Source: a virus. Taken from it: a stretch of 64,000 bases of DNA. Shown here in pieces: positions 1 to 32,839 of this stretch (positions are counted from its first letter, which is position 1; every line of letters starts with the position of its first letter). The notes beneath the pieces are model-generated. The model saw only the letters and a list, made by a program, of their open reading frames with translations. It made no database searches and was not told the DNA's origin. Position numbers and translations under genes: made by a program. The stretch is from IMG/VR virus record IMGVR_UViG_3300033149_003257, positions 32,001 through 96,000 of that record; one strand, 5' to 3'.

Positions 1-498
1 ATCATAACCAATAGATGTTAAAGTGTCTGCAAAAGTAAATACTAAATTATATATAGCATCTAGTTTTTCCCATCTTTCACAATTTTCAGGAATATTATCT
101 GGTTTTGTAACTACTAAGAAATCTTCTCCATCTTTATATAAAATACTATGTTCATTATGAAGTAATAAATCTATTGGATTTTTTATTTGTAAACCACCTA
201 TATCTACTAAAAGATCATAAAATAATGGATTTATTACAGGTATAGGAAGAATTATTTTAGCAAATCTTCTTCTTCTTTCATAATTACTAACAATATCTAC
301 TCCACATTCTTTACATTTTCCACCTGAAAAAGATATACCATAATATTTTCCACATTGACAAGTATAATTTTTCAATGGACCAAAAATTTGTTCAGAAAAT
401 AATCCCTCTGAATGAAATTTTTTCTTATCCATTATTTTAGTTGAAGTAACCTCTTTCAAATCTTTACAAAATTCATTAAAATTTAAAAGTTCTGGCAT
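1..498 (-). CDS. rpoC: RNA polymerase beta' subunit, N-terminal part (second copy; runs off the window edge; missing from ORF track)
   Basis: Manual translation from ATG at 498: MPELLNF...HSEGLFSEQIFGPLKNYTCQCGKYYG...GKCKECGVDIVSNYERRRRFAKIILPIPVINP. Contains the GLFxExIFGP motif and the Cys4 zinc-binding domain of beta'; frame open to position 1. Confidence 0.9.
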   Translation of the reverse strand, partial: MPELLNFNEFCKDLKEVTSTKIMDKKKFHSEGLFSEQIFGPLKNYTCQCGKYYGISFSGGKCKECGVDIVSNYERRRRFAKIILPIPVINPLFYDLLVDIGGLQIKNPIDLLLHNEHSILYKDGEDFLVVTKPDNIPENCERWEKLDAIYNLVFTFADTLTSIGYD

Positions 499-500
499 AT

Positions 501-734
501 TTAATGCTCTCCAAATTCTTCTATAATAAAATTTGCTATTTGAATAAAATGCTCTTTTACAACTGAAGAAACCACTAAATTAATATCTGGCAACAATTCA
601 TTAACTATTTGTTTTAATTCTTCTCTACTCAATTTCTCTTCGTAATTTTTTATTATGTTTGTAATTAATTGAATTAAAGTTTCTTCAATTGTAAGTTTAT
701 TAGTTTCTATTTCATTATTATTTTCTTGTGACAT
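501..734 (-). CDS. hypothetical protein
   Basis: 77 aa ORF, GGAG upstream, packed between neighbours. Confidence 0.6.
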   Translation of the reverse strand: MSQENNNEIETNKLTIEETLIQLITNIIKNYEEKLSREELKQIVNELLPDINLVVSSVVKEHFIQIANFIIEEFGEH

Positions 735-740
735 TAATTA

Positions 741-1109
741 CTAATCTCCTTTACTTAATTGAATAAACATTGAATTTACTTTTTTATATTTTATAGATTT
801 CCACAAAGTATAATAACATTCATCAAAATAAAAAGTTCTCAAATTATTTTCAATTATATTTAAAACTGAATCTGTTGGTTCAACATTTAAATACTTATCA
901 GAAAGACAATAAATATGATTATCTGGATCACAATTTGGATGATAACCATTTAATATTATCTTTTTAATTTTTTGGTGATTCGTTATAATTAAATAACCAT
1001 TTATAATATGATCTTCTGGTAAATCTAAAATAACGTATAAACTTTTTTGGTAAATTATTCGATTTGGAATAATTCTTTTATTTATAAATAAAAAATCAAT
1101 TTTATCCAC
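741..1109 (-). CDS. putative minimal E2/UBC-fold ubiquitin-conjugating-like protein
   Basis: YHPNCDPDNHIYCL matches the E2 signature HPN-x7/8-C-L; lies directly downstream of a ThiF/E1 gene. Confidence 0.55.
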   Translation of the reverse strand: MDKIDFLFINKRIIPNRIIYQKSLYVILDLPEDHIINGYLIITNHQKIKKIILNGYHPNCDPDNHIYCLSDKYLNVEPTDSVLNIIENNLRTFYFDECYYTLWKSIKYKKVNSMFIQLSKGD

Positions 1110-2096: not shown

Positions 2097-2342
2097 CTAT
2101 TGATTACTTTCCATTATATTAAGCATTTCATCAATATTGTTCTTTAGAAAAATAAGTTCTTTTTTACTTAATCTTCCCATTTTTCCATATCCAATAGTTT
2201 CATCTTTTTTTACGTAACTTCTAGTTATTTGTAACTTAATTTCTCCTTCATCATATTTCATTAAAGACATTAATAATGATTTATTGTTTTCACCATTCAT
2301 TTCAAATAATTTTATTAAGACATCTTTTTCTGGATCCCACAT
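2097..2342 (-). CDS. PC4/YdbC-like ssDNA-binding protein
   Basis: Pattern SLMKYDEGEIKLQITRSY...GYGKMGRLSKKELIFL resembles the PC4 fold. Confidence 0.45.
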   Translation of the reverse strand: MWDPEKDVLIKLFEMNGENNKSLLMSLMKYDEGEIKLQITRSYVKKDETIGYGKMGRLSKKELIFLKNNIDEMLNIMESNQ

Positions 2343-2361: not shown

Positions 2362-2398
2362 AAATAATCTGGAGAAAAAAATATTCTCCAGATTATTT
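2362..2398 (-). terminator. intrinsic terminator-like hairpin
   Basis: 15-bp inverted repeat AAATAATCTGGAGAA / TTCTCCAGATTATTT just downstream of the ORF ending at 2411. Confidence 0.7.
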
Positions 2399-2410: not shown

Positions 2411-3037
2411 TTAATCTTTTTTTAGTTTACGATCTTTAATTTTAGAAATAATATTCGACTCTGTAAAGCTAGGAATAGGTTTATAAGAAGATTTGTAATC
2501 AAAATCTTTAGATGTAACTACTAATGGATAAATATGAGGTATTCTTAATATAGCACGATGAATCGATTTTCTATCTTTTCTGGTTGCTGTAACTAATTTA
2601 ATTTTATTATATAATTGTATATCAAGTGATTTAAAATGTTCATTTAATTTCTCTATTTCATCTACATCTTTTATTTTTTTTATCTTTAATATTTCTCTAT
2701 TATTCTTATTCCATGTAGAATCAAATGAACCTTTTTTAGAATTATTTTTAATCCATCGATTAACATATGGATTAATTTTATCATCATTTGTTTTTCTATA
2801 TAATGCTTTTACCGCTTTTTTGTAAGAATATGACTTTCCCTTTTGTTTATTATATGTATCTAATAATGAACATATACTAATTCCTCTAGCTAATATATTA
2901 AAATTTTCATCAATTAAAATACAAACTGTATAGACAATAGAAATTTCAGTTGTATTTTTATAAAATCTAATATATTTTACTCCTTTATCTTGAAGATTTT
3001 TCTTAAGAAATCTCCTTTTTTTATTTCCTTTCTTCAT
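2411..3037 (-). CDS. basic hypothetical protein
   Basis: 208 aa ORF with GGAGG RBS; ARGISICSLLDTYNKQKG motif typical of small phage proteins. Confidence 0.7.
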   Translation of the reverse strand: MKKGNKKRRFLKKNLQDKGVKYIRFYKNTTEISIVYTVCILIDENFNILARGISICSLLDTYNKQKGKSYSYKKAVKALYRKTNDDKINPYVNRWIKNNSKKGSFDSTWNKNNREILKIKKIKDVDEIEKLNEHFKSLDIQLYNKIKLVTATRKDRKSIHRAILRIPHIYPLVVTSKDFDYKSSYKPIPSFTESNIISKIKDRKLKKD

Positions 3038-3099: not shown

Positions 3100-3134
3100 A
3101 GGGGATAATATATACAAAATATATATTATCCCCT
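3100..3134. terminator. perfect 15-bp hairpin after the Ubl gene
   Basis: AGGGGATAATATATA-CAAAA-TATATATTATCCCCT. Confidence 0.6.
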
Positions 3135-3154: not shown

Positions 3155-3622
3155 CTATTTATAACCTTTTCCACCAGCTGGTTTTAGAAATTCTAAATTA
3201 TCACCAAATTGTAAAACATAACCAGATGGAACCTGTTTTCCATTAACTATTCCATCTGCCATTTTGTCAATATTTAAAACTTCCCGAAGAAATTCAGAAA
3301 CCGCACCAACTGTTTTTCCAACAACATCAAAACGACCAGATGCAGCACCACTAGAAACTAAAATTGTTGTTGTGCACCTATCACCAAATCGAGCAGATGG
3401 TTTTGTAAAGCTGCTAGTAAATACAGCACTTATGTCTGTCACTTTATTAGAATCAACATTACTAATAGAAGGAGATGCTCCATATTTTTCTAAAATTGCA
3501 TCAATAACTACATCTTTTCTTTTCTTAGACATACCCGGTATATCTAATTCATAAACACACATAGTTCTAAGATCAGCGACAGTCCTAGCTTCCAACTCTT
3601 CTCTTGTAAATTCTTTTTTCAT
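3155..3622 (-). CDS. ubiquitin-like (beta-grasp) protein with N-terminal Rho-N/HeH helical domain
   Basis: C-terminal IVNGKQV...YVLQFGDNLEFLKPAGGKG(YK) is MoaD/ThiS/PRTRC-C-like; N-terminal LEARTVADLRTMC..LDIPGMSKKRKDVVIDAIL is Rho-N-like. Confidence 0.8.
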   Translation of the reverse strand: MKKEFTREELEARTVADLRTMCVYELDIPGMSKKRKDVVIDAILEKYGASPSISNVDSNKVTDISAVFTSSFTKPSARFGDRCTTTILVSSGAASGRFDVVGKTVGAVSEFLREVLNIDKMADGIVNGKQVPSGYVLQFGDNLEFLKPAGGKGYK

Positions 3623-3634
3623 TTTTTTTTTCTC

Positions 3635-4342
3635 CTAAATAAAAGATTTTAAAAGTTTTTGCTTTGGTTTTCTAATTTTTGAGCTTGCTGACATAGTTTT
3701 TATATCAAAATATATTTCTGAGTAAGTATAATCTTTTAAAACTACAATATTATAAAAAGCCCAACACATAATTGTAGCAACTCCTAAATTAGTAAAATAT
3801 AATTGTGGATCAGACTGAGCTAATTCTTCACAAGACAAATCATCAGGATGATTATCTTGAGCATTAATTATTTCAGGATGATAATCCGTAACTTTTGGAG
3901 TTATATCAACATCATTATATCTAACATATATTTGGACATTTCCATCTGTATATTCATTACCACCAGAAATTAAAATTATATTTGATAATGTACTACAATA
4001 ATCTGAAACTATTCTTCTTGTTTTATGATTATCTACACATACAAAAACTATATCATTATTATAAATATAAGAAGAAATATTATCATCATTTAAAAATTGA
4101 GAAACAAAATTGATGTCTAAATTATTAAATTTTTTTCTCAATTCTTCCATTTTAACTTTTGATTTGTTACCTAACATCATAAAATCTTGTCTTTCAAAAT
4201 TTTTAGGTTCGTATGAATCACCATCAATTAATTTAATATGTGATTCAAAGTTATTTAAATAATTTAAAAATCTACATATTTTTTCTGATAATATAGAACC
4301 AATTCCACCCAAACCAATTATTTTAATATTAATACATTCCAT
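3635..4342 (-). CDS. ThiF/E1 ubiquitin-activating-like enzyme (PRTRC-type)
   Basis: IGLGGIGS, LIDGDSYEPKNFERQ, CVDNHKTR, ISGGNE, LSCEE (putative catalytic Cys), PQLYFTN. Confidence 0.9.
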   Translation of the reverse strand: MECINIKIIGLGGIGSILSEKICRFLNYLNNFESHIKLIDGDSYEPKNFERQDFMMLGNKSKVKMEELRKKFNNLDINFVSQFLNDDNISSYIYNNDIVFVCVDNHKTRRIVSDYCSTLSNIILISGGNEYTDGNVQIYVRYNDVDITPKVTDYHPEIINAQDNHPDDLSCEELAQSDPQLYFTNLGVATIMCWAFYNIVVLKDYTYSEIYFDIKTMSASSKIRKPKQKLLKSFI

Positions 4343-4362
4343 AACTTAATCCTTTTAAGTAT

Positions 4363-5382
4363 TTAAAATTTCAATTTATTGGAATATTCTCTATTTGTTT
4401 TAATAATATCTTCTTGGGAATTATCACTAAAATTATAATTATCTTCATCAACATAAAAAAAATCTTCAACATCTACATCTAAATAATCTTCATTATCTTC
4501 ATCCCATTCTTCTATTTGTAATTTCATTTTATAATTTCTAAATACACATTCATTACATGGATTATATTCTTCATCTTCAATATTATTATTAAATAAGCTA
4601 TAATTAATATTTCCACTTGATAAGAAAGAAGAAGAAAATGGAAAAGATTGTTGATTATTATAAAAACTATAAGGGGACATTGAAAAATTGGAAACATAAA
4701 CTCTTTCAGATACATTTTTAAGCCAATCATTAACATTATAATTACATTTATTTTCATTTATTAAATATCTTAATTTTTTAAAATTATCTACTTCTTTAGA
4801 ATCTTCAGATAAAACAAGACCATCAATATATAAAGTTGGATCTACAATAAATCTAGAACCATTCGAAACTATACATGCAGATATACTAACATTTTCAGTA
4901 GGAATATTACCAATTGTTATATGTAAACCATCAAAATATTTTTCATCGTTGATATCTATACCGGAATGAAAAGCACTCATAAAACCATGAGAATGTATAG
5001 TTGCAATCATAATATAATTTTTTGGGCTTGCATTTCTTGTATATTTAATACCGCCTGGAGAAACTTCTTGCAATGGAGAATCGAAAAAATAACTATTATC
5101 TAACAAATTATAATATATAACTATAATTGACTCTCCTTTATACAAATCATATACTTTTTTGAAAAAAGTTATAATTTTATAAAATTCTTCGTTTGAAATT
5201 TTTGGAATATCTAATTTTGCAGAAGATGAAATACTATTTAATATAGAAATATTATCAACTGGTGTTATACTTTCTAATATCCCAACTTTCTTTTTTAAAA
5301 AAATACCTTCTTTAGCAACTATATAAAATATATCATCATCTGGAATCTCTTCTATTCCATTATTAATAAAAATTTTAAACAC
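4363..5382 (-). CDS. JAB/JAMM metallopeptidase (deubiquitinase-like) with acidic tail
   Basis: TIHSHGFMSAFHSGIDINDE = HxH-x7-S-xx-D JAMM motif; upstream Glu in KGESIIV; DGLHITIG. Confidence 0.9.
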   Translation of the reverse strand: MFKIFINNGIEEIPDDDIFYIVAKEGIFLKKKVGILESITPVDNISILNSISSSAKLDIPKISNEEFYKIITFFKKVYDLYKGESIIVIYYNLLDNSYFFDSPLQEVSPGGIKYTRNASPKNYIMIATIHSHGFMSAFHSGIDINDEKYFDGLHITIGNIPTENVSISACIVSNGSRFIVDPTLYIDGLVLSEDSKEVDNFKKLRYLINENKCNYNVNDWLKNVSERVYVSNFSMSPYSFYNNQQSFPFSSSFLSSGNINYSLFNNNIEDEEYNPCNECVFRNYKMKLQIEEWDEDNEDYLDVDVEDFFYVDEDNYNFSDNSQEDIIKTNREYSNKLKF

Positions 5383-5387
5383 TATTT

Positions 5388-8042
5388 TTATTCTCCTATA
5401 ATATTAATAATTTCTTTGGGGTCTACCATAATCCCATACTCTCTACGAACATTCGTATCTTTTATTTCTGTATAAGAATTATGAAAAGTTGGAATTACTT
5501 TTTTAAATTGATTTTGATTTACAATTTGTTTTAAACTTTTTCTCGGATTTAATATTCCATATCTAGATATTATACCATTTTTTCTAAAATGTCGTGCATA
5601 AGAATGAGAATACTCATCTTTTATAATATTGACTAAATATTTTTTGTGTAATGGTTCATAACTAGAATTTTCTAACATAGTTATGTTATTATTCATAGTC
5701 TCAAAAATGTCACCACCTTGAAAACCAAAAGTAGAGAATAAAATAGAATCATGATTTATTTTTGACCATGATGGCATATCTTTTGTATATAGTTCAAAAT
5801 TTTCTAACAAATCATCAAACCAAATAGTACAACAGTTTGAACATAAAACTAAAGGTTGATTACAACCAGTATCTGTTAAAAAAGCAACAATAATATTTGC
5901 TTTACTTTTTGGAAAACATTTTATTCCTTTTACCTTTGCTTTTATCTTAGTTCCAACTTTTACACCATTATATTCCGAAGAAACATGTCTAATTGTTCCA
6001 GCATTTATTATTCCAGTTCTAAAACTAATAAAATTTTTCTCATAATTAATATTATCATTACTATTCATTGAAATTACCAAATGATGAAAATCATTTACTG
6101 AAAAATTTGTAATTTGTCTAATTTTTAACATATCTACTGGATTTCTCCAATCTACAAAAATAACTTTATCTCCTAGTGAAAATTGTATATCTAAATCAAA
6201 ACTTCTGATTTTAACATGATCATCAGCTAATATATCTTGTATATTAAAATTTCTATTATAATCTAATTTATCAAGTTGATCAATATAATATCCATCTTTT
6301 CTAACATTTATAATTAAATTCTTACTACTATGCTGTAAATATAATCCATTTCTTACAGTTGAAACCATATTAGCATCATTATTTTCAGTTTCATTAACAA
6401 TATTATGATAATTAAAAAAACTATTTATGTCATAAATTTCTACTTCTTTATTACTGTTTTCAAATATACATCCTAAAACATTATCTTCTGTTTCTGTATC
6501 AAAAGCAACAAATTTTAATAATTTATAAAAATGAATAATTGGACTAAATATTCTTCTACTTTTTTTCATACGTTCATTAAAATAATATTTCTTTCCTATT
6601 TCCAATTTAGTACCATTATTTAATACTATATTATTTAAATCTATATGCTCAGCGACAATAGAATCAGATAAATAATTATAATTATCTGTTATTATTTCTG
6701 CTTTACCATCGTAATTAATTCTAATTTTATTTACCTTATTATAAATACCTTCTATTGGAAAAGTAATTTTAATAATATCTCCGCTTTTTATTGTTACACC
6801 ATTTTTTAAAATAATTTCAGATAAAGAATTTGTATCAAAAATTTGATTCATATATTGCATAAATTTATTAGTTAATTTATACTTTACTACTTTACTATTT
6901 TCTCTATCTTCAAAATTAATATATCTAACTTCTTCAAAATTATTCTCAAAACTATTCTTAAAAATTAGAGAATATATATATTTAACTCTTCCATTATTAA
7001 ATTTAACGGAATCTCCAACAGACAATATACGATCATTTAAATAAAGATTTTTTGAAAAACTTTCTACAAGTGTATAATATTCTTCACCTTCTTCACTTAT
7101 TTCTAATTCATCTACAACATCAATACCTTCACTAAAAAAAGAAACTATATCAAAATAACCTATAATATTTTGTCTGTTTTTCTTGATCTTTTTTTGTATA
7201 AGTGTTTCTACTAATCCCTTCAAATGGACGTTAGCCTTTAACCAATTTACATTAAATATAAACATTGGATCTTTCATAGAATAATAAGACCATGTTAAAA
7301 AATCAGATAACTCTAAAGGTCCTTCTCGTTCGTAATCAATATAATGATATGAATAATCTTTATTAAATATATTTTTCCAGAATGCATTAATATAAGCTTC
7401 AATAGTTTCGTTACAGTTTCCATATGTATATTTATTAGTAATTTCGCCTAAACAAACAGAATAATTTGTATTAATATTTGTTAAATTCGGTTTTAAAAGG
7501 TCATCTTCTAAAGAACCAAATGGAGATAATTTAAAAAATACTTTCATTTCTTTTACTATAGGACCATCAAAAATAAATATATATATAATATAAGGAAATG
7601 ATAAAGATATTTTGTATGGAGATTTATTTTCTTGAAGGAAATTTTGTAAATTAAATATATCTATTTTTCCTTCAATTTTTAATTTTTCAATTATAGCTTC
7701 AAAATTAAAATCTATAAAAATAGTTCTTATTCTTGGTTGTTCTTCAATAACAAATATTTTTTTATGTGTTAAATCTTTAAAAAATCTACAGTTTTTAGGA
7801 AGCAACATATCTAAATCAGCATGTGAATCTTGTATTAATATTTTCTGCATATGCTTAAAAAAATCACTTGTGAGTAATGAAAATTTATTTGAAAAAGGTA
7901 CTACATTAGCTTCAGCTTCATTGATATCTTTTTCTACTAAATTTAATTCAGATATTTTTTCATTACTAAATGCTTTTATATTATATAAACCTGTTTTATT
8001 TCTATCAATAATTATACAATCATTTGTTGACATTGTTGACAT
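5388..8042 (-). CDS. large protein with prokaryotic E2-fold (family D / PRTRC-B-like) domain and repeated beta-rich C-terminal modules
   Basis: LSFPYIIYIF...VFFK...LLKPNLTNINTNYSVCLG...INAFWKNIFNKD matches the P-x-x-N...VC-G...FW-x-S/N-x-F pattern; first gene of the E2-JAB-E1-Ubl operon. Confidence 0.75.
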   Translation of the reverse strand: MSTMSTNDCIIIDRNKTGLYNIKAFSNEKISELNLVEKDINEAEANVVPFSNKFSLLTSDFFKHMQKILIQDSHADLDMLLPKNCRFFKDLTHKKIFVIEEQPRIRTIFIDFNFEAIIEKLKIEGKIDIFNLQNFLQENKSPYKISLSFPYIIYIFIFDGPIVKEMKVFFKLSPFGSLEDDLLKPNLTNINTNYSVCLGEITNKYTYGNCNETIEAYINAFWKNIFNKDYSYHYIDYEREGPLELSDFLTWSYYSMKDPMFIFNVNWLKANVHLKGLVETLIQKKIKKNRQNIIGYFDIVSFFSEGIDVVDELEISEEGEEYYTLVESFSKNLYLNDRILSVGDSVKFNNGRVKYIYSLIFKNSFENNFEEVRYINFEDRENSKVVKYKLTNKFMQYMNQIFDTNSLSEIILKNGVTIKSGDIIKITFPIEGIYNKVNKIRINYDGKAEIITDNYNYLSDSIVAEHIDLNNIVLNNGTKLEIGKKYYFNERMKKSRRIFSPIIHFYKLLKFVAFDTETEDNVLGCIFENSNKEVEIYDINSFFNYHNIVNETENNDANMVSTVRNGLYLQHSSKNLIINVRKDGYYIDQLDKLDYNRNFNIQDILADDHVKIRSFDLDIQFSLGDKVIFVDWRNPVDMLKIRQITNFSVNDFHHLVISMNSNDNINYEKNFISFRTGIINAGTIRHVSSEYNGVKVGTKIKAKVKGIKCFPKSKANIIVAFLTDTGCNQPLVLCSNCCTIWFDDLLENFELYTKDMPSWSKINHDSILFSTFGFQGGDIFETMNNNITMLENSSYEPLHKKYLVNIIKDEYSHSYARHFRKNGIISRYGILNPRKSLKQIVNQNQFKKVIPTFHNSYTEIKDTNVRREYGIMVDPKEIINIIGE

Positions 8043-8044
8043 AA

Positions 8045-8416
8045 TTATTCACCTTTCATAAATTTTAACATTTTTGCATATTTTGTTATTATTTTTTTTG
8101 CTGTTTCTTCATGAATCGCAAAAGTCTTTTTTGTTCTTAAACCTTTTCTATTTTTTAGTAAATCTTCAGTTAATGCTGATTGTAAAACTATAATAAATTT
8201 TCCTGGCATTTCTCTTTCTAAATTAAGATAACTTGTTTCATTTTTTGTTTTTCCAGGAACCTGTAAAGATAAAAATATATTTGGCCCTTTTGGTAAATTG
8301 ACATAATCTTGTATTGTAGAAACTTCTTCTTGATAAATACTATCACAAAGTCTTTTTACTTGTTCATCAAGACTACTATCTTCACAGTCGATTAAAACTT
8401 CTTCTAAAAGTGTCAT
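8045..8416 (-). CDS. hypothetical protein
   Basis: 123 aa ORF in operon. Confidence 0.7.
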   Translation of the reverse strand: MTLLEEVLIDCEDSSLDEQVKRLCDSIYQEEVSTIQDYVNLPKGPNIFLSLQVPGKTKNETSYLNLEREMPGKFIIVLQSALTEDLLKNRKGLRTKKTFAIHEETAKKIITKYAKMLKFMKGE

Positions 8417-8417
8417 T

Positions 8418-8768
8418 TTATTCCCCTAAATATGATTCACAAAATTGTTTCATATTAACAAATATTGATTTAAATAATTTTTCTTTATTAATTTTTTTTG
8501 TTGATGATTGATATAATATAAATGCAAATACCTCTTCAATAAAAGTTAAAATATCATCATCCAATTCTTCTACACTATTTGTATTTTGAATATATGCCTG
8601 GTTATTAATTATATCAATAAAATTAAACCTATCTTTCAAATTATTATTATCTTTAAATAAAATATTATTCATTCTTAATATACAACCAAATATATTATTT
8701 AACCATATAACTCCATTTGTTGTATCAATTTCTAAAGTTGCTAGAGGAATTTTTTTAATTAGTCTCAT
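8418..8768 (-). CDS. hypothetical protein
   Basis: 116 aa ORF with GGAGG RBS. Confidence 0.7.
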   Translation of the reverse strand: MRLIKKIPLATLEIDTTNGVIWLNNIFGCILRMNNILFKDNNNLKDRFNFIDIINNQAYIQNTNSVEELDDDILTFIEEVFAFILYQSSTKKINKEKLFKSIFVNMKQFCESYLGE

Positions 8769-8775
8769 AAATTAA

Positions 8776-9081
8776 TCACCTCCGTCTAATACTAAACTTT
8801 TTAGTTGGTGTTTCTAACCATTCTACTTTTTGGAATGGGACAGATCTCCAATCATTTTTTTCTAAATCAAAAACATGAATAATTTTATTATCTTTTAATA
8901 ACTTTAAAATTTTTTCTATATTTACAGATTTTGGTTTTTTGGAATCAGGTATTTTATCAAAATTTAAAGTACATTTCATAATTCTTATACTTCCATCTTG
9001 TTTTTTAAACCTTATATTTACCGAATCCTCTCCTCGAACTTTTCTCCAAAATTCTATTACACTATCTATAAAGTCTTCCAT
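8776..9081 (-). CDS. WYL_2/Sm-like SH3-fold protein
   Basis: FKKQDGSIRIMKCT...IHVFDLEKNDWRS motif. Confidence 0.75.
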   Translation of the reverse strand: MEDFIDSVIEFWRKVRGEDSVNIRFKKQDGSIRIMKCTLNFDKIPDSKKPKSVNIEKILKLLKDNKIIHVFDLEKNDWRSVPFQKVEWLETPTKKFSIRRR

Positions 9082-9095
9082 ATTCCTCCATTAAA

Positions 9096-10121
9096 TTATA
9101 TCCTTTTTTCTCGGTGCATAACAATTTCTGATAAACTAGGGTTTTTTTCAACAATATTTGACATTAACATACATGTCCAATTACATTTTCTACAAAGTTC
9201 TTTTTTATTCTTTTTAATAAAAGAATTTAAAAATGGACTTATTTCTTTATCTTTCAAAAATATTTTATCTGCTGGAAATACTCCAATACTTCCTTTTATT
9301 CGCAAACATAATCTAACCGTTCCATCAGCATCTATTGATAAATTATGTAAATTATTTTCAATTTTACAATCCATCTCAGATGGAAGTATATTTATAATTT
9401 TATTTAAAAAGTTAGATCCCATATGTACATCTAAATTCTCTTTTTGTATTAAATCTATTTGCTCTTCTAAAATTTTTGTTCTACTTACTAAGAGACTTTT
9501 ATCAGAAACATTAGAAAAATCATAATATGGAGTTTTTGCTATATCAATAAAAGTTATAGAACTACTTATATTATAGTCAGATAAATATTTTACTAGAGAA
9601 TATAAATACTCAACATTATTATTATCAACTGTAATTTCAGCAACTAGATCTTTTATAATTCCTTTATATTTAGAAAGATTTATTAATCCCTGTGTACTTT
9701 TTTTCATTCTGTCAGAAAATTCTTCATCAGAGAAAATTAGTGGATCAATTGAAGAAGTCAATCCAGAAATATATGGTACACTAATCATTAAATCTTCTAA
9801 TTTATCTTGAACTTCTTCTGAATTATTTGTAATAATTGTATAATGTATACCTTTCTTATTACAATATACAACTATTTCTGCAAGATCTTCTCTTAATAAT
9901 GGTTCACCACCATAAAATATATGAAACATATCTGAATTATGGTTATAAAATTTTTCTAAACAATTTATAACAAACGAAGTAGACATTTCATTTTCATAAT
10001 AATATTTCATATTTGGATATGCTTTTGGTTTATCTTTATAATTTCTAACAATTCCACAATAAGAACATCTAAGATTACACTTTCTTGTTAATAACCAATT
10101 AACAATTCTAATTTCTGACAT
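9096..10121 (-). CDS. radical SAM protein
   Basis: CNLRCSYC, YGGEPLLR, IITN, C-terminal Cys cluster (CL...CRKCNWTC). Confidence 0.9.
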   Translation of the reverse strand: MSEIRIVNWLLTRKCNLRCSYCGIVRNYKDKPKAYPNMKYYYENEMSTSFVINCLEKFYNHNSDMFHIFYGGEPLLREDLAEIVVYCNKKGIHYTIITNNSEEVQDKLEDLMISVPYISGLTSSIDPLIFSDEEFSDRMKKSTQGLINLSKYKGIIKDLVAEITVDNNNVEYLYSLVKYLSDYNISSSITFIDIAKTPYYDFSNVSDKSLLVSRTKILEEQIDLIQKENLDVHMGSNFLNKIINILPSEMDCKIENNLHNLSIDADGTVRLCLRIKGSIGVFPADKIFLKDKEISPFLNSFIKKNKKELCRKCNWTCMLMSNIVEKNPSLSEIVMHREKRI

Positions 10122-25739: not shown

Positions 25740-28700
25740 TTATCTCCCTAACATAAGTGATACAAAATAAGAATTTAATAATTCTCTAGTTGGTGATGAT
25801 TTAGATTCTCTATATTCTGCTGAACCTGTTTGAATAATATCTGAAATAATCTCATTTTTTGTAACATGATCATCACTTAATGGTCCAAAAAATTCAGATA
25901 AAATTTTTGGACAATTATAAGACACTAAAGCCCAAGTATCTTGTTCACCAACTCTTTGTCCTCCTTCTCGTCTCTTTCCAGATAATGGTTGTAAAGTTTT
26001 TTGTTTAACTGGACCAGTAGATCTAGTATGTATTTTTGAAGAAGCAAGATGTTCCATTTTTTCAATATACATATAACCAATCGGAACAACATTATAAGTT
26101 TTTGTATTAAATTCTGGAAGTTTTAAATAATAACCAGATTTTAAATTTAATATTTTCATACATTGTAAAATATCTTTATAAGATGGTGCTTTAAAAGGTG
26201 GAATAATTATTGGAACAAAACCATTATTTTTAATTTGATTAATCATTTCTTTAAATTTATTATCACTCATTTTAGAAATATTATTAGTTAAAGATGATAT
26301 AAATTTTTGTCCTTTTGATTTATCTAATGGTTTTAAAACTGAATTTAAAATATTTACTACCTTAGATTTTGTATTATTTTCTATTATTATATTTGCTAAT
26401 TTTTTTGAAATTAAACCACAATATAATTCATATATTTGACCCATATTCATTCTACCGATGACTCCGAGTGGATTTAAAATAATATCTACTGTTTCACCCC
26501 AAGGAGTTCTGGGCATCAAAGAATCTTTTTCAATTAATGAAATAATACCTTTGTTTCCATATCTATTACATAATTTATCTCCAATTTGAACTTTTAATTC
26601 TTGTTCAATTTTAAATTTTATAAGTACACCTTTTATAGAAACTCCTCTTATTGTAAACCGTTCTTTTTTCTTTCTTTCATATCTTTTATTAGTTCTTTTA
26701 ATTAAATCTTGTAATATTGGAAACTTATCTTCATTAATATTACAAAACACCTCTATATCAACAACTATTCCACCAGGACTTTTCTTTATATATTGACCAG
26801 AAGATATTTCTGAATTTTCATCTTCTAATTCTTCTATTCCAATTAATTCTTCTATTTCTCCAATTGATCTCCTTAAAAGAGGTTTTCCTTTTTCAATATG
26901 TTCTCCAATTTTACAAATATATAATAATCTATCTTCAGAAGATACAGGAGCTTCTTCTATAATACCATGTAATGAAGTCAACATATCATTAGAAACCAAT
27001 CTTTCATTTATAACAATTCCATCTTCAAAATTATATCCTTTATATGGCATAAGAGCTACTAATAAAGTTCTGCCTAAAGATATACTTCCTCCAGATACAC
27101 AAGCTCCTTCAGCAACTATTTCATTATTCTTTACAATCTGACCTTTTTTAACTTTTACTTTAAAAACACTTAATGTATCTTTTCCAGAACCAGATTTCAA
27201 ATGAAATGGTGATATATCTAGTTCATGTTTATCACCATTTTTACATATAATAATAATACTATCTTTTGTTATATTAAAAACTTTACCATTACATGGAGAT
27301 CTTTTAATAAAACTATCAGATAATACATTACTAAGAATAGACTCATAACCAGATTGTATTACCGGAGGTGATGGATTTTTTAATGGTAATGCTTGTCTTG
27401 CTTGACTACATGAAAACATAACTCTTGGACCATCATTATTTTCTATAAATGGAACCATACAAGAAGCAGATGACAACATTCCAGAATATTCATTGTCAGA
27501 AATATCTTTTGTTGTAAATAAACCTCTAGCAGATGTAATTAAAGCATCAACAGTTAAATATTGGATAATTCCAACATTACTACCTTCTGGAGTATCCAAT
27601 GGATCAATATTTCCAAAATAAGATGGATGTACATTTCTAGCTTCTAATTGTATAGCTCCCTTATCTGGGATTCCACCAATATTCTTTCCAACAGGAGAAA
27701 CTCTTGTCATAACTGATAATTCTTCAATAGGATTTGCATATTCCATATTAGAAACGATTTCAGAATTTATAAAATCTCTTAAAACTTTATCTGAAACTAA
27801 GTTAAACACTGCATTTTTATTTCCAGATAATACTTGTTCTTTATATTCTGTATAAGCAGCAAGAATTTGTTTTTGTGCTAAATTTACCAAAACTTCTGAA
27901 TTTCTTATTCTTTGATTAGATAAATCATTTCTTTTTTCTTCAAAACCAGTTACAACTTTACTGGCCATATATTTCATAATATCATCTAATTCAGTAGGTA
28001 ATTGTTTATTTACTAAAATTTGTTTAACAACCGGATCAACAATATTTTCTAAATTAGTTGATAAGAGATAAGTAGAATTTACTCTTCCAGTAATTTTTGT
28101 AATTAAACTATTAAAATACTCTTTACTTCCAAAAGGATATTGTATATTAAATTCATCCGGTTTACTTCTAGAAAAAGATTCACATAATTCAAATTTTAAA
28201 TCATTATCTACATTCTCAAAAACAACATATTCATTTTCATTTATTTTTGTAAACATCTCATCTTTTTTGGGTTTACTTTGAACAATTTTATATTTTAAAT
28301 TATATTTCTTAATTGTATTTTCAAAACCAAAACTATAACATAAAACTATAAATAATGATAATTTATATGAACCCATATATATTTCTAACCAATGATTTTT
28401 TCTGGTTCTTTTACTTTGTATATGAAATTTTGAATATGAACTTTCAAATTTCGAATCATAAGCTTTTGGAAATGTTATTGGACATAAAACTAATTGATTA
28501 ATTAAAATCTTCTTATCACCATTTAATCTAAAAACTCCAAATTTATCAATTTTAGGAACTTCAATTTCAACTTCATGTGTATTACCAAACTCATCTTTTA
28601 AAATTGTTTTTATAATAGATATATCAGATTTATCTATTTCAGTTGCTTTACTTTGTTTATCAACAATATTCATAGATACTATTTTTAATGGAATTTCTTT

Positions 28701-29831
28701 CCTTTCTAAAACTTTAAAAGAATTTTCCATATCTTTTTTCAAATTAATTTCAAAATCAATTTGTCTCTTTTGAAACAAATGTTCTGGTGATTTATCATCA
28801 ACCATTTTTGGAATATTTAATAACTCATTTATCATATTATCAGATAAAGAAATAGTTTTCTCTGGTTTTAATAATTCATCTGAATATGTATTATCAACAT
28901 TTTTTAAAGCTGTTTTAGTTTTATCTTTTGGAATCATTTTAGATAATCTATTAGATTTTTCCAAATCTCCACTAGTTTGATAAAGTATTGAAGCAACTGT
29001 TAATTTATCTATTTCTTCATCATTTAATTCATCTGAATTTATAGAATCTACTAAATCTGGTTGATTTTTTAAATAAGAAGATACTGCATTTTGAACTTTT
29101 GAAGAAGTATTCTTATTAATTACATCAGACACTTTTTTAATAACATTAGTAGATGCTTTATTAACTTCTACTTCCTCATCTTTTTCTAGATCAATTAATT
29201 TAATATTTCGAACATATTGTAATAATCTAGAAAATTGATAATTTTTATCTTTTATTAAAACTCTATATTTTGAACTATCAAGAGAGACAATATTTAATAA
29301 CATATGATCAAATAGAAAGTCATTATCTTTTAATTGCTGAACAATTGGAAATATCTTTCTATTAACAAATTGATTTAAATTTTTTGTAACATTAATAGAA
29401 TAAAATAAAACCTTTCTATAATTTTGTGGAAATTCATCTTGTATTTTTAGTAAAATATTCTTAATTAAAAATCCAGATCTTTGTCTATAATTAGTCGGTT
29501 TATAAATAGAATCTATTGCTTGTAAATAAGCTGATAAATCAAAAAATAAATTTTTATCAGAAGGAAATTTCATTGCAGTACTAAAAGCAAATAATTTATA
29601 GGATTTATATAATTTTCTAGTATCAGATAATAATCTTGTTCTCGGTATTTTTGTAATTGGAATAACAACATTTTTAACATCAATATTTCTAATTCCTAAT
29701 TTTGTATAATCATCTAATAATGTAGAATTTTCAGGAAAGAAAATAAGTAAATAAGGTCTTTCTCTATCTTGAGGAAATCTAATATTACTTACTACTCTTG
29801 TATATTGTTTTATATCATCAAATTTTAACAA
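25740..29831 (-). CDS. rpoB: DNA-directed RNA polymerase beta subunit (phage, unsplit, N-terminally extended)
   Basis: RNVHPSYFG..DP.DTPEG, GYNFEDG, GDKLCNRYGNKG, NPLGVIGRMNMGQ, EHLASSKIHTRSTGP, GGQRVGEQD. Confidence 0.95.
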   Translation of the reverse strand: MLKFDDIKQYTRVVSNIRFPQDRERPYLLIFFPENSTLLDDYTKLGIRNIDVKNVVIPITKIPRTRLLSDTRKLYKSYKLFAFSTAMKFPSDKNLFFDLSAYLQAIDSIYKPTNYRQRSGFLIKNILLKIQDEFPQNYRKVLFYSINVTKNLNQFVNRKIFPIVQQLKDNDFLFDHMLLNIVSLDSSKYRVLIKDKNYQFSRLLQYVRNIKLIDLEKDEEVEVNKASTNVIKKVSDVINKNTSSKVQNAVSSYLKNQPDLVDSINSDELNDEEIDKLTVASILYQTSGDLEKSNRLSKMIPKDKTKTALKNVDNTYSDELLKPEKTISLSDNMINELLNIPKMVDDKSPEHLFQKRQIDFEINLKKDMENSFKVLERKEIPLKIVSMNIVDKQSKATEIDKSDISIIKTILKDEFGNTHEVEIEVPKIDKFGVFRLNGDKKILINQLVLCPITFPKAYDSKFESSYSKFHIQSKRTRKNHWLEIYMGSYKLSLFIVLCYSFGFENTIKKYNLKYKIVQSKPKKDEMFTKINENEYVVFENVDNDLKFELCESFSRSKPDEFNIQYPFGSKEYFNSLITKITGRVNSTYLLSTNLENIVDPVVKQILVNKQLPTELDDIMKYMASKVVTGFEEKRNDLSNQRIRNSEVLVNLAQKQILAAYTEYKEQVLSGNKNAVFNLVSDKVLRDFINSEIVSNMEYANPIEELSVMTRVSPVGKNIGGIPDKGAIQLEARNVHPSYFGNIDPLDTPEGSNVGIIQYLTVDALITSARGLFTTKDISDNEYSGMLSSASCMVPFIENNDGPRVMFSCSQARQALPLKNPSPPVIQSGYESILSNVLSDSFIKRSPCNGKVFNITKDSIIIICKNGDKHELDISPFHLKSGSGKDTLSVFKVKVKKGQIVKNNEIVAEGACVSGGSISLGRTLLVALMPYKGYNFEDGIVINERLVSNDMLTSLHGIIEEAPVSSEDRLLYICKIGEHIEKGKPLLRRSIGEIEELIGIEELEDENSEISSGQYIKKSPGGIVVDIEVFCNINEDKFPILQDLIKRTNKRYERKKKERFTIRGVSIKGVLIKFKIEQELKVQIGDKLCNRYGNKGIISLIEKDSLMPRTPWGETVDIILNPLGVIGRMNMGQIYELYCGLISKKLANIIIENNTKSKVVNILNSVLKPLDKSKGQKFISSLTNNISKMSDNKFKEMINQIKNNGFVPIIIPPFKAPSYKDILQCMKILNLKSGYYLKLPEFNTKTYNVVPIGYMYIEKMEHLASSKIHTRSTGPVKQKTLQPLSGKRREGGQRVGEQDTWALVSYNCPKILSEFFGPLSDDHVTKNEIISDIIQTGSAEYRESKSSPTRELLNSYFVSLMLGR

Positions 29832-29842
29832 AAATTAATCTC

Positions 29843-32839
29843 CTAAAAAGTTCCAGATAAAATTCTATCTAAAATAGATGGTTCAAATTTATCTTCACTT
29901 GTTAACCCGGTTTGTATAGCTTTTCCAATATTTTCAAAAGCTAGTCCACTAACAAAACTAGAATTGAATATAACTTCTTTTATATTTATCAAAACTGGAT
30001 CCCATGTTTTTCCCAATCTTGCTGGAATATTAATATCATCTTTATTTCTTAAAACATTACTCATTAATACTTCTATATGAACAGAATCCATATCTCCTGA
30101 TGGCCATTTATTAGTTATTTTTTTAAATAAATTAGTAGTATCTTTAAACAACTCTCTTCCACCAATTAATCGTTCCATATAATTAGCTTGATCTTTTAAT
30201 TCACTAGTTTCTAATGACGTTTCTAAAATAATATCTCCTTGTTTATAATTTAAAACAATTTGTTTATTAATTTCCTCAAAATTTCTTTTTTGTATAATAA
30301 CAGAATAATCCAAAACTATATTAAATATTAAATTATCAAACTCTATTGTCGAAATTAAATTAGATACCCATATAGAATTATCTTCAATACGAATATTATT
30401 ATTCATATTATAAACATTTAAATCAAGTTTTAAAATACAATCTTTTTTACAAATTAAACCATTTTCTTCTTGTTGTATATACTCATTTAACTTATTTTCA
30501 TTTATATCTAATAAAGGATCATTTTCTAAAATATCTTTTAATAAATTTTTATCAGTTATTGAAACTGCTCCGCCAAGGTGAAACGTTCGCATGATTAGCT
30601 GGGTTCCTCGTTCCCCAATAGCCATCCCAGCAATTGTTCCAATATATGGAGATTTATGTCTTAACAAAAGTTTCCCATAACAGGTATGACATATTTTATA
30701 AGATTTACAAAATATTGGAGATCTTAATTGAATAGTTTCTCCAACTTTATGTTCTTCCGGAATAAACTCTTCTATTCTTCCTTTATTTAAAAAATATCTT
30801 CCTTTAAGTCTTTTTATTAAATCTTTATCTAATCTTACATTTAAATATTTTTTTGTTCCACAATCTTTTAAATATGGATCTGCTTCAACATTACTTAACA
30901 AATAAACAAGTTTACGAGACAAATAACCTGTAGTAGACGTATTCAATGCACGGTCAATCATTCCTTTTCTACCGCCCTGAGACATCTCAAAAAATTCTTT
31001 ATTTGTTAAACCATCAGAATATGATCCACTAATTGGATCTAAAACTTTACCAGTTGGATCTGCAATAATACCCTTTGCTATTAAAATTTGTGTTGGTTGA
31101 TCCCATCCTTTTGCTGCTCCAGATTCAACTAGATCATATAATCCAGTATTTTTTAAATGTTTTATCAATATTTGTTTAGCTTTATTAATTAATATAGATG
31201 CTTGTTCAACTGTTGCTCCATTTATTTGTTTTTTTATTTCATAAATTTCATCTGGAAGTTCTATATCATCAATTTTTATAGATGGAGCAGAAATAGTAGC
31301 AAATTTAAAACCAATCTTCTCTAATTTAGAAAAGACATCTATAGCAATATTTTCACCATACTTTTCTAGAATTGTATTAATATAACTATTTATAATTTTT
31401 TTCGTTACTGTTTTATCTATAAATTCAAAATCAGGCGGAAAAGCATTATTTAAAATTGCTTTCCCCATGGTAGTATTTTTTCCTCTAAATTTAACTGGAA
31501 TATATGGATTAGTAGCATTTTCTAAATCTTCTTCATTAACTATTATAGGAGACTTATTTATCAATACATTTTTTGTTATAATATATAAACCAACAGCCAT
31601 TTCTTTAGAAAGGTCAAATGAAACATCTGTTGAAGAAGTTCCAGTTGTTCCTTTCATCATTTTCTCTTTAGCTTCTTGTTGAGCTTCATTTGTGAGAGGA
31701 TGATAAATAGCCATAACATCACCATCGAAATCAGCATTATGTTGACCAACTTGTAATGTACATACTTGAATAGTATCGCCTTCAATTAATCTAGGATAAT
31801 ATGCTCTATAAGATTCAGCATGTAAAACTGGATCTCTTTTCGCTAATACTACTCTACCTTCCATTACTGATTCTGTAGCATCAAAAAATATTTTATACAA
31901 CTCATCTGGAATAACATCTTTATTACGAATTGCTTTAATAACTCTCTGAACACTATCAACAGATAAACTAACATTATCAAAATTTTTTATTTCATCTTCC
32001 AAATTACTCTCATTAATTTTACCAGAATATAATAAACGATGAATTAAAAATGGTTCAAATAAAGTAGTAGCCATTCTAAATGGAATACCAATTTCATTAA
32101 CTTTTAAATTTGGTCCAGGAACAATAACTCCTCTTCCACTAAAATCTACTCGTTTTCCCATTAAATCAGATCGTATTAAACCACTTTTCTTTTGTATTCT
32201 ATTTTGAATAAAAGCATCATGATTAATAACTGCTTGTTGAACTCCATATGATAATAAATCAAATAATGGTCCACTTTTACTAACAGTTTTTATTTGAAAA
32301 GATTTTCTTAAAATTGATAAATATATTTCATTTAATTCGTCACTTGTCCAATTCCCAGATTCATCTTGAAAAATTGGTCTAAAATCTGGTGGAATTACAG
32401 GAACTTTACTTACAAATAAAGTTTTATCTTTATATGATCTTTGTAATAATTCTATAAAATTCTCTCTAGTTTTAGTTTCTCCTCTAAATTTTATATTTGG
32501 AAAAATATCAATAAAATTTGATAATCCTGTTACACCATCTGGATCAATTTTTAATGTTCCATCTTTATCTAAACTAAAATTTTCTTCCGTTGATATAAAT
32601 TTCTCTATTCTTCTATCTAATCTATATAAAATTTTATAAGCAGATGGATGAATAACTTCTATATTAATATCAATATATGAATATTTTTTCGTTCTATCAA
32701 TTGATCCAACTACTCCGAATATACTTTCAGAAAATAAACCCTCTGGATTAAAATCTCCACCTCTAGTAAAAAATTCTGTAGAAGTAATTGGAGTTAAATT
32801 AGATACAAATTTATTCACATCAAGAAATTTAATAAACAC
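29843..32839 (-). CDS. rpoC: DNA-directed RNA polymerase beta' subunit (phage, lacks N-terminal Zn domain)
   Basis: GLFSESIFG, PVIPPDFRP, GKRVDFSGR, NADFDGD catalytic motif, TGYLSRKL, QLIMRTFH. Confidence 0.96.
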   Translation of the reverse strand: MFIKFLDVNKFVSNLTPITSTEFFTRGGDFNPEGLFSESIFGVVGSIDRTKKYSYIDINIEVIHPSAYKILYRLDRRIEKFISTEENFSLDKDGTLKIDPDGVTGLSNFIDIFPNIKFRGETKTRENFIELLQRSYKDKTLFVSKVPVIPPDFRPIFQDESGNWTSDELNEIYLSILRKSFQIKTVSKSGPLFDLLSYGVQQAVINHDAFIQNRIQKKSGLIRSDLMGKRVDFSGRGVIVPGPNLKVNEIGIPFRMATTLFEPFLIHRLLYSGKINESNLEDEIKNFDNVSLSVDSVQRVIKAIRNKDVIPDELYKIFFDATESVMEGRVVLAKRDPVLHAESYRAYYPRLIEGDTIQVCTLQVGQHNADFDGDVMAIYHPLTNEAQQEAKEKMMKGTTGTSSTDVSFDLSKEMAVGLYIITKNVLINKSPIIVNEEDLENATNPYIPVKFRGKNTTMGKAILNNAFPPDFEFIDKTVTKKIINSYINTILEKYGENIAIDVFSKLEKIGFKFATISAPSIKIDDIELPDEIYEIKKQINGATVEQASILINKAKQILIKHLKNTGLYDLVESGAAKGWDQPTQILIAKGIIADPTGKVLDPISGSYSDGLTNKEFFEMSQGGRKGMIDRALNTSTTGYLSRKLVYLLSNVEADPYLKDCGTKKYLNVRLDKDLIKRLKGRYFLNKGRIEEFIPEEHKVGETIQLRSPIFCKSYKICHTCYGKLLLRHKSPYIGTIAGMAIGERGTQLIMRTFHLGGAVSITDKNLLKDILENDPLLDINENKLNEYIQQEENGLICKKDCILKLDLNVYNMNNNIRIEDNSIWVSNLISTIEFDNLIFNIVLDYSVIIQKRNFEEINKQIVLNYKQGDIILETSLETSELKDQANYMERLIGGRELFKDTTNLFKKITNKWPSGDMDSVHIEVLMSNVLRNKDDINIPARLGKTWDPVLINIKEVIFNSSFVSGLAFENIGKAIQTGLTSEDKFEPSILDRILSGTF

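Follow-up and report, generated by a model that had tools for sequence, protein, structure and literature searches.

Among prokaryotes, conjugation of ubiquitin-like proteins (Ubls) has, to our knowledge, been demonstrated only in bacterial operons, namely type II CBASS, Bil, and Bub, all of which have been read as anti-phage immunity. Another described gene set, the PRTRC cassette (TIGR03735 PRTRC_A, TIGR03737 PRTRC_B, TIGR03738 PRTRC_C, and TIGR03736 PRTRC_ThiF), is carried by plasmids, integrative and conjugative elements (ICEs), and genomic islands; the full-text literature that we searched contained only incidental mentions of it. Here, we analyzed a four-gene cassette in the IMG/VR virus record IMGVR_UViG_3300033149_003257 (151,964 bp), within a stretch of 64,000 nucleotides (bases 32001-96000 of the record, hereafter the window). 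The four genes encode a protein with a predicted UBC/E2-fold domain (E2L), a JAB/JAMM metallopeptidase (JAB), a ThiF-type adenylating enzyme (E1a), and a Ubl precursor (Ubl). Homology and gene architecture suggest that this cassette is probably a phage-encoded cascade that activates and transfers a Ubl and is distantly related to the PRTRC enzymatic core. Our searches of the full-text literature, the coverage of which is incomplete, returned no description of a phage-encoded E1/E2/JAB/Ubl system and only one phage Ubl/JAB pair, lambda gpI/gpK. A comparative survey of jumbo phages does not mention such a system either (PMC7824862).

Judged by profile matches, no named family comes closer than the PRTRC cassette. 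Like PRTRC, the window cassette combines a JAB, a Prok-E2_D-type E2, a small Ubl ending in GxKG, and a short ThiF of ~240 aa. The best NCBIfam models for E1a and JAB are PRTRC_ThiF (E=2.9e-13, residues 4-218 of 235) and PRTRC_A (E=1.1e-8, residues 20-174, 34.9 bits vs a cut-off of 101.8). However, both matches fall far below the curated cut-offs, and E2L and Ubl match neither PRTRC_B nor PRTRC_C; the E2 domain itself gave no match to PRTRC_B. Among the nine window proteins scanned, no match to PRTRC_B, C, D, E, or F was found, and the ParB-like partner is absent. The architecture differs as well: the E2 is part of a fusion with about 600 aa of beta-barrels, the Ubl is fused to a HeH/Rho_N domain, a pair of additional proteins (a second ThiF-like protein, E1b, and a candidate minimal E2, mE2) is attached, and the carrier is a lytic-type jumbo phage rather than a plasmid or an ICE. 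By these comparisons, the cassette is PRTRC-core-like in parts, yet it is not a PRTRC member by curated criteria.

Cassettes of cultured Bacillus jumbo phages, reached through E1a, bridge the window cassette to PRTRC, as judged from their profile matches. They are found in vB_BauM_KLEB27-3 (gp194-gp199, OM634661.1), vB_BceM_WH1 (gp211-gp216, LC597490.1), and Edson (PV796108.1), and their genes are annotated as hypothetical, PRTRC_A domain, or ThiF. The ThiF of KLEB27-3 and WH1 matches both PRTRC_ThiF (7.7e-31) and the hidden Markov model (HMM) of E1a (8e-27), the JAB that precedes it matches PRTRC_A (3e-7) and our JAB HMM (1e-18), and the E2 of 241-255 aa that precedes the JAB matches Prok-E2_D (2.7e-4), PRTRC_B (1e-3), and the E2L HMM (1.3e-9). 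Farther upstream are a 509-559-aa protein and a small protein. The last gene of the cassette encodes four or five head-to-tail units of 57 aa, each ending in ...KAGVKG or ...QAGTKG; its product matches Pfam Prok_Ub (PF14454) at 5e-27 and PRTRC_C above the cut-off, and this repeat structure makes it a phage gene for a polyubiquitin-style precursor. The WH1 copy, gp211, is annotated as a 'virion structural protein'. The Bacillus and window cassettes share a homologous E1, JAB, and E2 core, the Ubl end F-E/K-V-K/Q-A-G-x-K-G, and a jumbo-phage carrier. In the Bacillus cassettes, by contrast, the Ubl is a tetramer or pentamer, the E2 stands alone, a second E1/E2 pair is absent, and the neighborhood is different. 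Only the last 17 columns were aligned when the window Ubl family was compared with the Bacillus poly-Ubl by hhalign.

Bil, Bub, and type II CBASS share logic and superfamilies with the window cassette but depart from it in how the E1 is built, in fusions, and in the type of peptidase (PMC11601596, PMC11601603); Bub uses a serine peptidase with diverged chemistry (PMC11601596). Like Bil (BilABCD, types I and II), the window cassette has separate Ubl, E2, JAB, and E1 genes and the same cascade logic, and Bil Ubls can also bear N-terminal domains (PMC11601603). Unlike Bil, which is a host defense, the window cassette is viral, and no significant sequence match links the two: when the JAB profile was run against the PDB, BilC (8tyx) was the best entry at the motif, with E=0.32, AMSH and Rpn11 were also matched, and all of these matches are sub-significant. 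Type II CBASS (Cap2/Cap3) and Bub (BubABCD) have E1 and E2 domains of the same superfamilies as the window cassette, but in both of them the E2 and E1 are fused, and the CBASS substrate is the C-terminus of the CD-NTase, not a Ubl. The pairing of a beta-grasp protein bearing a C-terminal Gly with a ThiF-type adenylating enzyme is also seen in ThiS-ThiF and MoaD-MoeB; those sulfur-carrier pairs, however, lack an E2 and work with sulfur donors and acceptor enzymes, none of which occurs in the window block. In the JAB-matured variants of such carriers, CysO/Mec+ and QbsE/QbsD, the JAB trims a short tail. The Ubl and JAB pair of lambda tail assembly, gpI/gpK (TAPI/TAPK), is a phage-encoded pair that has already been discussed (PMC1779556, PMC12908700); unlike the window cassette, it has no E1 or E2, and its Ubl is cut off a structural protein instead of being conjugated.

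A first-pass annotation of this DNA, made from the sequence alone, had described four tightly spaced, co-oriented genes that carry the motifs of an E2, a JAB, an E1, and a Ubl and lie among phage core genes of matching composition. All of these features were recovered. The four open reading frames (ORFs), of 884, 339, 235, and 155 aa, lie on the minus strand (Table 1) with intergenic gaps of 5 nt (E2L-JAB), 20 nt (JAB-E1a), and 12 nt (E1a-Ubl), and each of the motifs is present and is conserved far beyond chance in orthologs. The DNA is a jumbo-phage fragment and is neither cellular nor plasmid, the two origins that would have spoken against a viral cassette, because it belongs to a virus record, carries phage genes recognized by PHROG, and shares its contig with the gene of a T4-type large terminase, which is 31% identical to those of Flavobacterium and Microcystis phages (E 2e-58). 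The PHROG matches of the larger window ORFs include the beta and beta' subunits of a phage multisubunit RNA polymerase, topoisomerase II, an SbcC-like nuclease, a helicase, and ribonucleotide reductase. G+C content is 21-25% throughout, the range along the entire window being 21-30%, strand skew is uniform, and nearly all genes are on the minus strand. CheckV rates the 152-kb record as 49% complete, from which we estimate a whole genome of roughly 300 kb.

Judged by sequence, the E2 was the weakest of the four assignments; it depends on E2L, for which the first-pass annotation had pointed to an E2 fold with a Cys. A full HMMER scan with the E2L family retrieved 1930 clusters at E<=1e-3 and 322 at <=1e-30. 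Asn189 and Cys197 of the segment 'NINTNYSVCLG' (Asn-x7-Cys) do not vary in any of the 67 homologous ORFs from 62 IMG/VR loci, nor in sets of 80 and 130 representative sequences. The AlphaFold2 model of full-length E2L, built from an 80-sequence alignment, has a mean predicted local distance difference test score (pLDDT) of 83.9, and a model of residues 1-295 has one of 84.6, with values >90 over residues 80-280. We compared the latter model with 48,161 PDB representatives using VIA-align, and the best 38 entries are all of the UBC/UEV fold. The top match is UbcH5c (8uqe_B; Z 5.2, root-mean-square deviation (rmsd) 5.1, 118 aligned residues); bacterial E2s follow with CdnG-E2 (8hsb_B, Z 4.1), BubCD (Z 3.8), and Cap2 (Z 3.7). 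Also among the best 38 are the eukaryotic and viral E2s UbcH5, Ubc8, Ube2K, UbcH7, E2S, UbcH10, Pex4, Ubc13, Ubc12, Ubc9, and ASFV I215L, as well as UFC1 and the non-catalytic Tsg101 UEV. Since the best 38 contain nothing other than UBC/UEV folds, and the alignment covers ~80% of an E2 core (about 120 of about 150 residues), a chance match is unlikely. With the full-length model, VIA returned three E2s for the same N-terminal segment, and the C-terminal barrels accounted for most of what Foldseek and VIA matched. The model runs from a strand to Asn189, Cys197 eight residues later, a short helix, a long helix (210-223), and two more helices, an order that we take, from comparison with UbcH5, to be the canonical E2 pattern. 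Taken together, the model and the conserved residues indicate that residues 79-270 of E2L are a divergent, probably catalytic E2 domain, so the absence of a UBC fold, which would have undone the E2 claim, was not what we found.

The remaining ~580 residues of E2L are modeled as four to five SH3/Tudor/KOW-like beta-barrels. Foldseek matched them to Spt5 KOW arrays (E 2e-5), the tandem Tudor of SETDB1, and UBE2O (E 1.5e-3), and VIA matched residues 406-471, 476-555, 604-688, and 690-761 to Tudor, BAH, KOW, CarD, and UvrD Tudor domains at Z 5-6. Barrels of the SH3/Tudor/KOW type are generic binding modules, and the simplest reading of the predicted array is that it is a candidate built-in substrate-recognition part of E2L. 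Homologs of E2L were found on 61 IMG/VR contigs, the longest of 527 kb, and on ENA contigs; a tblastn search with E2L of 50,697 deposited phage genomes returned no match, and none of 201 stand-alone relatives of the E2 domain has a precomputed Pfam label. In three IMG/VR contigs of more distant phages, of 239, 120, and 527 kb (loci L056, L063, and L064), two tandem stand-alone E2-domain genes replace the long fusion. Their products are about 320-450 aa long, each with the invariant Cys, and the Ubls of these loci are shorter (108-122 aa). We had considered these genes as 'split' E2L genes and rejected this, as they are tandem E2-domain paralogs with a Cys in each.

E1a is, on profile and residue evidence, a bona fide ThiF-family enzyme. 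Pfam ThiF matches it at 68.8 bits (cut-off 28.1, E=5e-19), and its nearest PDB relatives by sequence are MoeB, Uba4, ThiF, and UBA5. The motifs GLGGIG (G10, G12, and G13), NFERQ (R51-Q52), and LSCEE (C171), which had been read as those of a ThiF/E1 protein, are invariant at these positions in 54 orthologs, together with D40 and D104. Cys171 is the sole invariant Cys and lies ~67 residues past the Mg-binding Asp, at what we take to be the position of the crossover-loop Cys of ThiF and MoeB. The JAMM motif noticed earlier in JAB (HSH-x7-S-xx-D) proved equally firm: E84, H130-x-H132-x7-S140-x2-D143 is invariant in 54 orthologs. Prok-JAB is sub-threshold on the window protein (E 2e-4, 21.5 bits vs a cut-off of 25) and is matched at E<=0.01 by 52 of the 54 orthologs (best 1.7e-7). 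Several JAB orthologs carry zinc-ribbon modules in the C-terminal extension.

The Ubl precursor consists of an N-terminal HeH/Rho_N-like domain, a Ser-rich linker, a beta-grasp domain, and a two-residue tail. Rho_N is matched by 38 of 50 orthologs (best 3e-15) and SAP by three more, and the Ubl profile gave a sub-significant match to the Rho N-terminal domain in the PDB (E 0.007). The beta-grasp domain is matched by TGS in 15 of the 50 orthologs (best 6.7e-5) and by ThiS in four (best 3.2e-4), all below the cut-offs. An ESM Atlas model of the exact Ubl sequence matches ThiS/MoaD clusters over residues 80-154 with template modeling (TM) scores of 0.76-0.82, and K152-G153 is invariant in all 50, which agrees with the earlier description of a beta-grasp protein ending in GGKG-YK. 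At most loci, the Ubl ends exactly at ...GxKG, whereas at others C, R, F, YK, LA, VILTK, DRKGC, or IDVGL follows; the variable tails past KG are 1-16 residues long. In 120 further family members, 51 end in ...KG and 63 in ...KGC. An invariant terminal Gly followed by a short unconserved cap is a hallmark of a Ubl precursor that needs trimming by a peptidase, and the adjacent JAB would explain how such a capped Gly is exposed. Extra 'Ubl' HMM matches upstream of E2L in five loci were rejected, as they are HeH-domain proteins without the GxKG end.

We then surveyed the locus with HMMs built from the window genes over 62 usable loci. The four genes occur together in 61 of these loci, and the order E2L, JAB, E1a, Ubl is kept, with median gaps of -10.5, -4, and +13 nt, and the synteny in related phage contigs that the first-pass annotation had proposed to check therefore holds in ~60 of them. 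The conserved unit, however, extends beyond these four. In about 50 loci, they belong to a longer block of fixed order that comprises SbcC, radical SAM/SPASM, WYL_2, (p116), p123, E2L, JAB, E1a, Ubl, (p208), (p81), E1b, mE2, and p77, followed by RNA polymerase beta' and beta; the genes in parentheses are missing from some loci. In 45 of 52 loci, a beta' ORF with NADFDGD begins <=2.5 kb downstream of mE2; more distant phages (loci L059-L065) retain the minimal four-gene core alone. The four-gene frame proposed earlier thus stands as a real core but leaves out E1b, mE2, and the fixed position beside the RNA polymerase genes. No further paralogs were found in the 152-kb record. Unsplit beta' and beta genes of a multisubunit RNA polymerase are present twice in the phage: one set immediately follows the Ubl block, and the other occupies 25740-32839 of the window. 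In the ENA contig that carries P0007, the beta' gene downstream of the cassette contains an intein (Pfam Intein_splicing; 1256 aa).

From homology and gene architecture, we infer each chemical step, the protein targets, and the biological role as follows. JAB would cut YK off the 155-aa precursor and expose Gly153. E1a and ATP would then adenylate Gly153, and the Ubl would form a thioester on Cys171 before being handed to Cys197 in the UBC-fold domain of E2L. The target would be chosen by the C-terminal SH3/Tudor/KOW-like array, which would make E2L a combined E2/E3, and the Ubl would be joined to it, most likely at a lysine, bringing along its N-terminal HeH/Rho_N nucleic-acid-binding domain. 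JAB may also undo the modification. The first-pass annotation had likewise proposed, with suitable caution, that the virus may run a protein-conjugation pathway of its own, to tag host or phage proteins or to counter host Ubl defenses. The cassette is fixed in a replication and transcription block, directly upstream of the phage RNA polymerase genes, and it most likely acts in early or middle infection on host or phage proteins associated with DNA or transcription.

Several points weigh against such a cascade. Conjugation is deduced from homology and architecture; ThiS/MoaD-like proteins, ThiF-type E1s, and JAB maturases also serve as sulfur carriers; and no target, no E3, and no recognizable reader of the tag was identified. 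E1a has neither a separate catalytic-Cys domain nor a ubiquitin-fold domain. On the E2 side, the assignment comes from a structural model whose scores are modest (Z about 5, rmsd about 5 A, ~120 residues), Foldseek of the E2 domain model against the PDB gave nothing significant (best UBC match E=0.69), and the E2L family sequence profile returned nothing from the PDB at E<=10. The match of E2L to Pfam Prok-E2_D (PF14460) is below threshold (16.1 bits vs a cut-off of 25, E=0.009, residues 181-237), with weak matches in three of nine homologs. Lastly, the His of the classical HPN motif is missing from E2L, which has LTN; this His is likewise replaced in some prokaryotic E2 families (PMC1779556).

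The same proteins could instead form a sulfur-carrier pathway, in which a JAB-trimmed carrier of the ThiS/MoaD type would be adenylated by E1a and deliver sulfur as a thiocarboxylate to a small molecule, a tRNA, or a phage DNA base, with the Cys of E2L relaying the sulfur. The Ubl is indeed closest to ThiS, MoaD, and TGS, two of its relatives are called 'molybdopterin converting factor small subunit' by the Joint Genome Institute (JGI), and the PDB neighbors of E1a include MoeB, Uba4, and ThiF; the nearest families, however, are PRTRC A/B/C/ThiF and not cofactor pathways. Trimming by a JAB-type enzyme fits a sulfur carrier too, as Mec+ acts on CysO and QbsD on QbsE, and many Ubl family members have a one-residue Cys cap past the Gly, similar to the tail of QbsE, which reportedly reads GG-CF. 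A conserved radical SAM gene lies nearby, and one relative has a PTPS/QueD-like gene in the vicinity, but the family scans revealed no rhodanese, no cysteine desulfurase, and no acceptor enzyme of the ThiG, MoaE, CysM, or TtuA type in the block. Moreover, a UBC-fold protein with an invariant Asn-x7-Cys accompanies the other three genes in all loci, and both the HeH domain on the Ubl and the head-to-tail poly-Ubl of the Bacillus phages fit a protein tag better. On balance, we consider a sulfur-carrier pathway unlikely.

There is also a slim chance that the cassette serves mainly to neutralize host Ubl immunity such as Bil, type II CBASS, or Bub. JAB would then strip host Ubl or CD-NTase conjugates off phage proteins, while the phage E1, E2, and Ubl would compete with the host system or mis-tag its substrates. 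The experimentally characterized bacterial E1/E2/JAB systems are all antiphage and modify phage or immune proteins (PMC11601596), and JAB enzymes do deconjugate, with BilC being the best, though not significant, PDB neighbor of the JAB motif. However, simple deconjugation would require neither a Ubl of its own nor an E2 extended by a large target-binding part, and the cassette is fixed in a core replication and transcription block of a large phage clade instead of a variable accessory region. Similarity to Bil or Cap parts in PADLOC is above noise only for E1a, which weakly matches the CBASS E1-E2 models in the Cap2 E1 domains (5e-6); Ubl, JAB, and E2L had no match in PADLOC-DB 2023, which may lack Bil and Bub models.

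It is very improbable that the modification is E2-independent or is not directed at proteins, with E1a alone transferring the Ubl in the manner of archaeal SAMP/UbaA or Urm1/Uba4, or with a nucleic acid or lipid as the acceptor, and with the 884-aa protein as a scaffold whose UBC-like domain would be a non-catalytic UEV/RWD-type module: the structural match does span the UBC/UEV/RWD superfold, including the non-catalytic Tsg101, Vps23, and RWD domains, the HPN His is missing, and the Ubl has a nucleic-acid-binding domain, but catalytic E2s outrank the UEV and RWD entries, and neither the Cys nor the Asn located eight residues ahead of it varies in 67 and 80 homologs, which would be unexpected for a non-catalytic UEV.

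Within the favored reading of a Ubl activation and transfer cascade, one may speculate that the targets lie in transcription or the nucleoid, as the KOW/Tudor-like barrels, a tag with a nucleic-acid-binding domain, and the location beside RNA polymerase genes together suggest. It is an outside chance, in our view, that the cascade modifies this machinery as a switch for the hand-over of transcription between host and phage, evolutionarily independent of eukaryotic ubiquitin signaling. The barrels, which are similar to RNA polymerase-docking modules such as Spt5/NusG KOW, CarD, and the UvrD Tudor domain, would then dock the E2 on an RNA polymerase or on a protein bound to DNA, the Ubl, once attached, would add its HeH/Rho_N domain to this target, and E1b/mE2 would be a second arm or a eukaryote-like heterodimeric E1.

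The E1b/mE2 pair is a frequent add-on to the core, with E1b present in 53 of the 62 loci. E1b matches Pfam ThiF (2.5e-14), and its profile matches MoeB (1.3e-13); GxGxxG, D67, K90, D126, and C127 (the DCxD Mg site) are invariant. However, E1b has NLKTS where the ATP motif NLxRQ is expected (NFERQ in E1a), and its adenylation activity is therefore doubtful. In 44 of 53 orthologs, the C-terminus reads [ED]TG[AGS]A. We found no support for a C-terminal Ubl in E1b that would be homologous to the window Ubl (hhalign of Ubl against the E1b C-terminus, probability 0.1%), and an Atlas search with this C-terminus returned nothing. Across 46 mE2 orthologs, H57 and C68 do not vary, and P58 and N59 hardly do. 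This HPN...C arrangement is the classical E2 active-site signature, but ~120 aa do not suffice for a complete UBC domain, and the matches of mE2 to E2 enzymes are sub-significant (UBC and Pex4 in the PDB, with E=0.11 for 5nkz at the motif; Pfam UQ_con in one of 46 orthologs). When mE2 and E2L were compared by hhalign, their Cys motifs aligned with a probability of only 1.7%. The pair may provide a second transfer route, a heterodimer or regulatory partner, or a self-conjugated tail.

A perfect hairpin closes the core gene set, as had been noted before. In gene orientation, its stem is followed by an A-run and no U-run; it is therefore not a textbook intrinsic terminator, and the label of a terminator is not justified. 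It may act as a terminator for a phage polymerase or as an RNA processing or stability element. A second perfect 15-bp hairpin follows p208, and the two flank this gene and divide the block into three units. Terminator-like sites numbered five, against one expected in shuffles. Upstream, E2L starts 2 nt past the stop of the preceding gene, that of p123, for which the family scans gave no significant family match. The WYL_2 gene, located between the radical SAM and Ubl genes, is kept in 54 loci, and the best NCBIfam match of the radical SAM protein is the prokaryotic viperin family (1.6e-14, below the cut-off).

Table 1. Positions of the cassette, its domains, and neighboring features in the window, and of two poly-Ubl genes in Bacillus phage loci
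Feature	Position	Strand	Description or basis
RNA polymerase beta' gene start (phage multisubunit type, context)	1..498	-	ORF; Pfam RNA_pol_Rpb1 domains in syntenic contigs
p77, small conserved protein, before RNA polymerase beta' gene	501..734	-	Present in 45 loci
mE2, 122 aa, candidate minimal E2	741..1109	-	HPN...C motif; conserved residues
E1b, second ThiF-like protein, 323 aa	1115..2086	-	Pfam ThiF; degenerate Arg-Gln motif; ...ETGAA C-terminus
p81, small conserved protein	2097..2342	-	Present in 14 loci by HMM
Second hairpin, after p208	2362-2398		Perfect 15-bp hairpin
p208, conserved protein between the two enzyme sets	2411..3037	-	Present in 24 loci
Hairpin between Ubl gene and next gene	3100-3134	.	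Perfect 15-bp stem, 5-nt loop
Four-gene core: E2L, JAB, E1a, Ubl	3155-8042	-	ORFs
Ubl precursor, 155 aa	3155..3622	-	HeH/Rho_N-like domain, Ser-rich linker, beta-grasp, tail YK
Ubl, two-residue tail YK	3158-3163	-	After Gly153
Ubl, beta-grasp, residues about 80-153	3164-3385	-	TGS/ThiS, Atlas structure; end ...PAGGKG
Ubl, HeH/Rho_N-like domain, residues 9-46	3485-3598	-	Rho_N matches in orthologs
E1a, minimal ThiF-type adenylating enzyme, 235 aa	3635..4342	-	Pfam ThiF, conserved residues; candidate catalytic Cys171
JAB/JAMM metallopeptidase, PRTRC_A-like, 339 aa	4363..5382	-	Motif, Prok-JAB, PRTRC_A; acidic CxxC-containing C-terminal extension
E2L, 884 aa, predicted UBC/E2-fold domain then small beta-barrels	5388..8042	-	AlphaFold2, family HMM
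E2L, predicted beta-barrels, residues about 300-880	5391..7142	-	AlphaFold2, Foldseek, VIA
E2L, predicted UBC/E2 core, residues about 79-270	7233..7808	-	Predicted catalytic Cys197 at codon 7452-7454; Asn189 eight residues before
p123, conserved protein, 123 aa, directly upstream of E2L	8045..8416	-	Same position in 50 of 62 loci
p116, upstream neighbor	8418-8768	-	Conserved block member
WYL_2 protein (Sm-like SH3 barrel)	8776-9081	-	Pfam 1.4e-11; phrog_1086 3.7e-15
Radical SAM protein, possible SPASM domain	9096-10121	-	Pfam; same position in 52 loci
Poly-Ubl, KLEB27-3 gp199	742-1449 of locus L067		Four near-identical units and a short C-terminal extension
Poly-Ubl, WH1 gp211	667-1566 of locus L068		Five near-identical units and a short C-terminal extension

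What is new here is the carrier and the architectures, whereas the chemistry and the superfamilies are known. Machinery similar to that of the bacterial operons is a conserved, core-embedded feature of a large jumbo-phage clade, and it comes with unusual architectures: an E2-barrel fusion, a tag with a nucleic-acid-binding domain, a second E1-like/E2-like pair, and, in the Bacillus phages, a polyubiquitin-style precursor. Since these culturable Bacillus jumbo phages carry related cassettes, the question of conjugation is directly testable. If proteins are conjugated, the uncharacterized PRTRC family would gain its first functional handle, and bacterial viruses would be users, not merely victims, of ubiquitin-like tagging.

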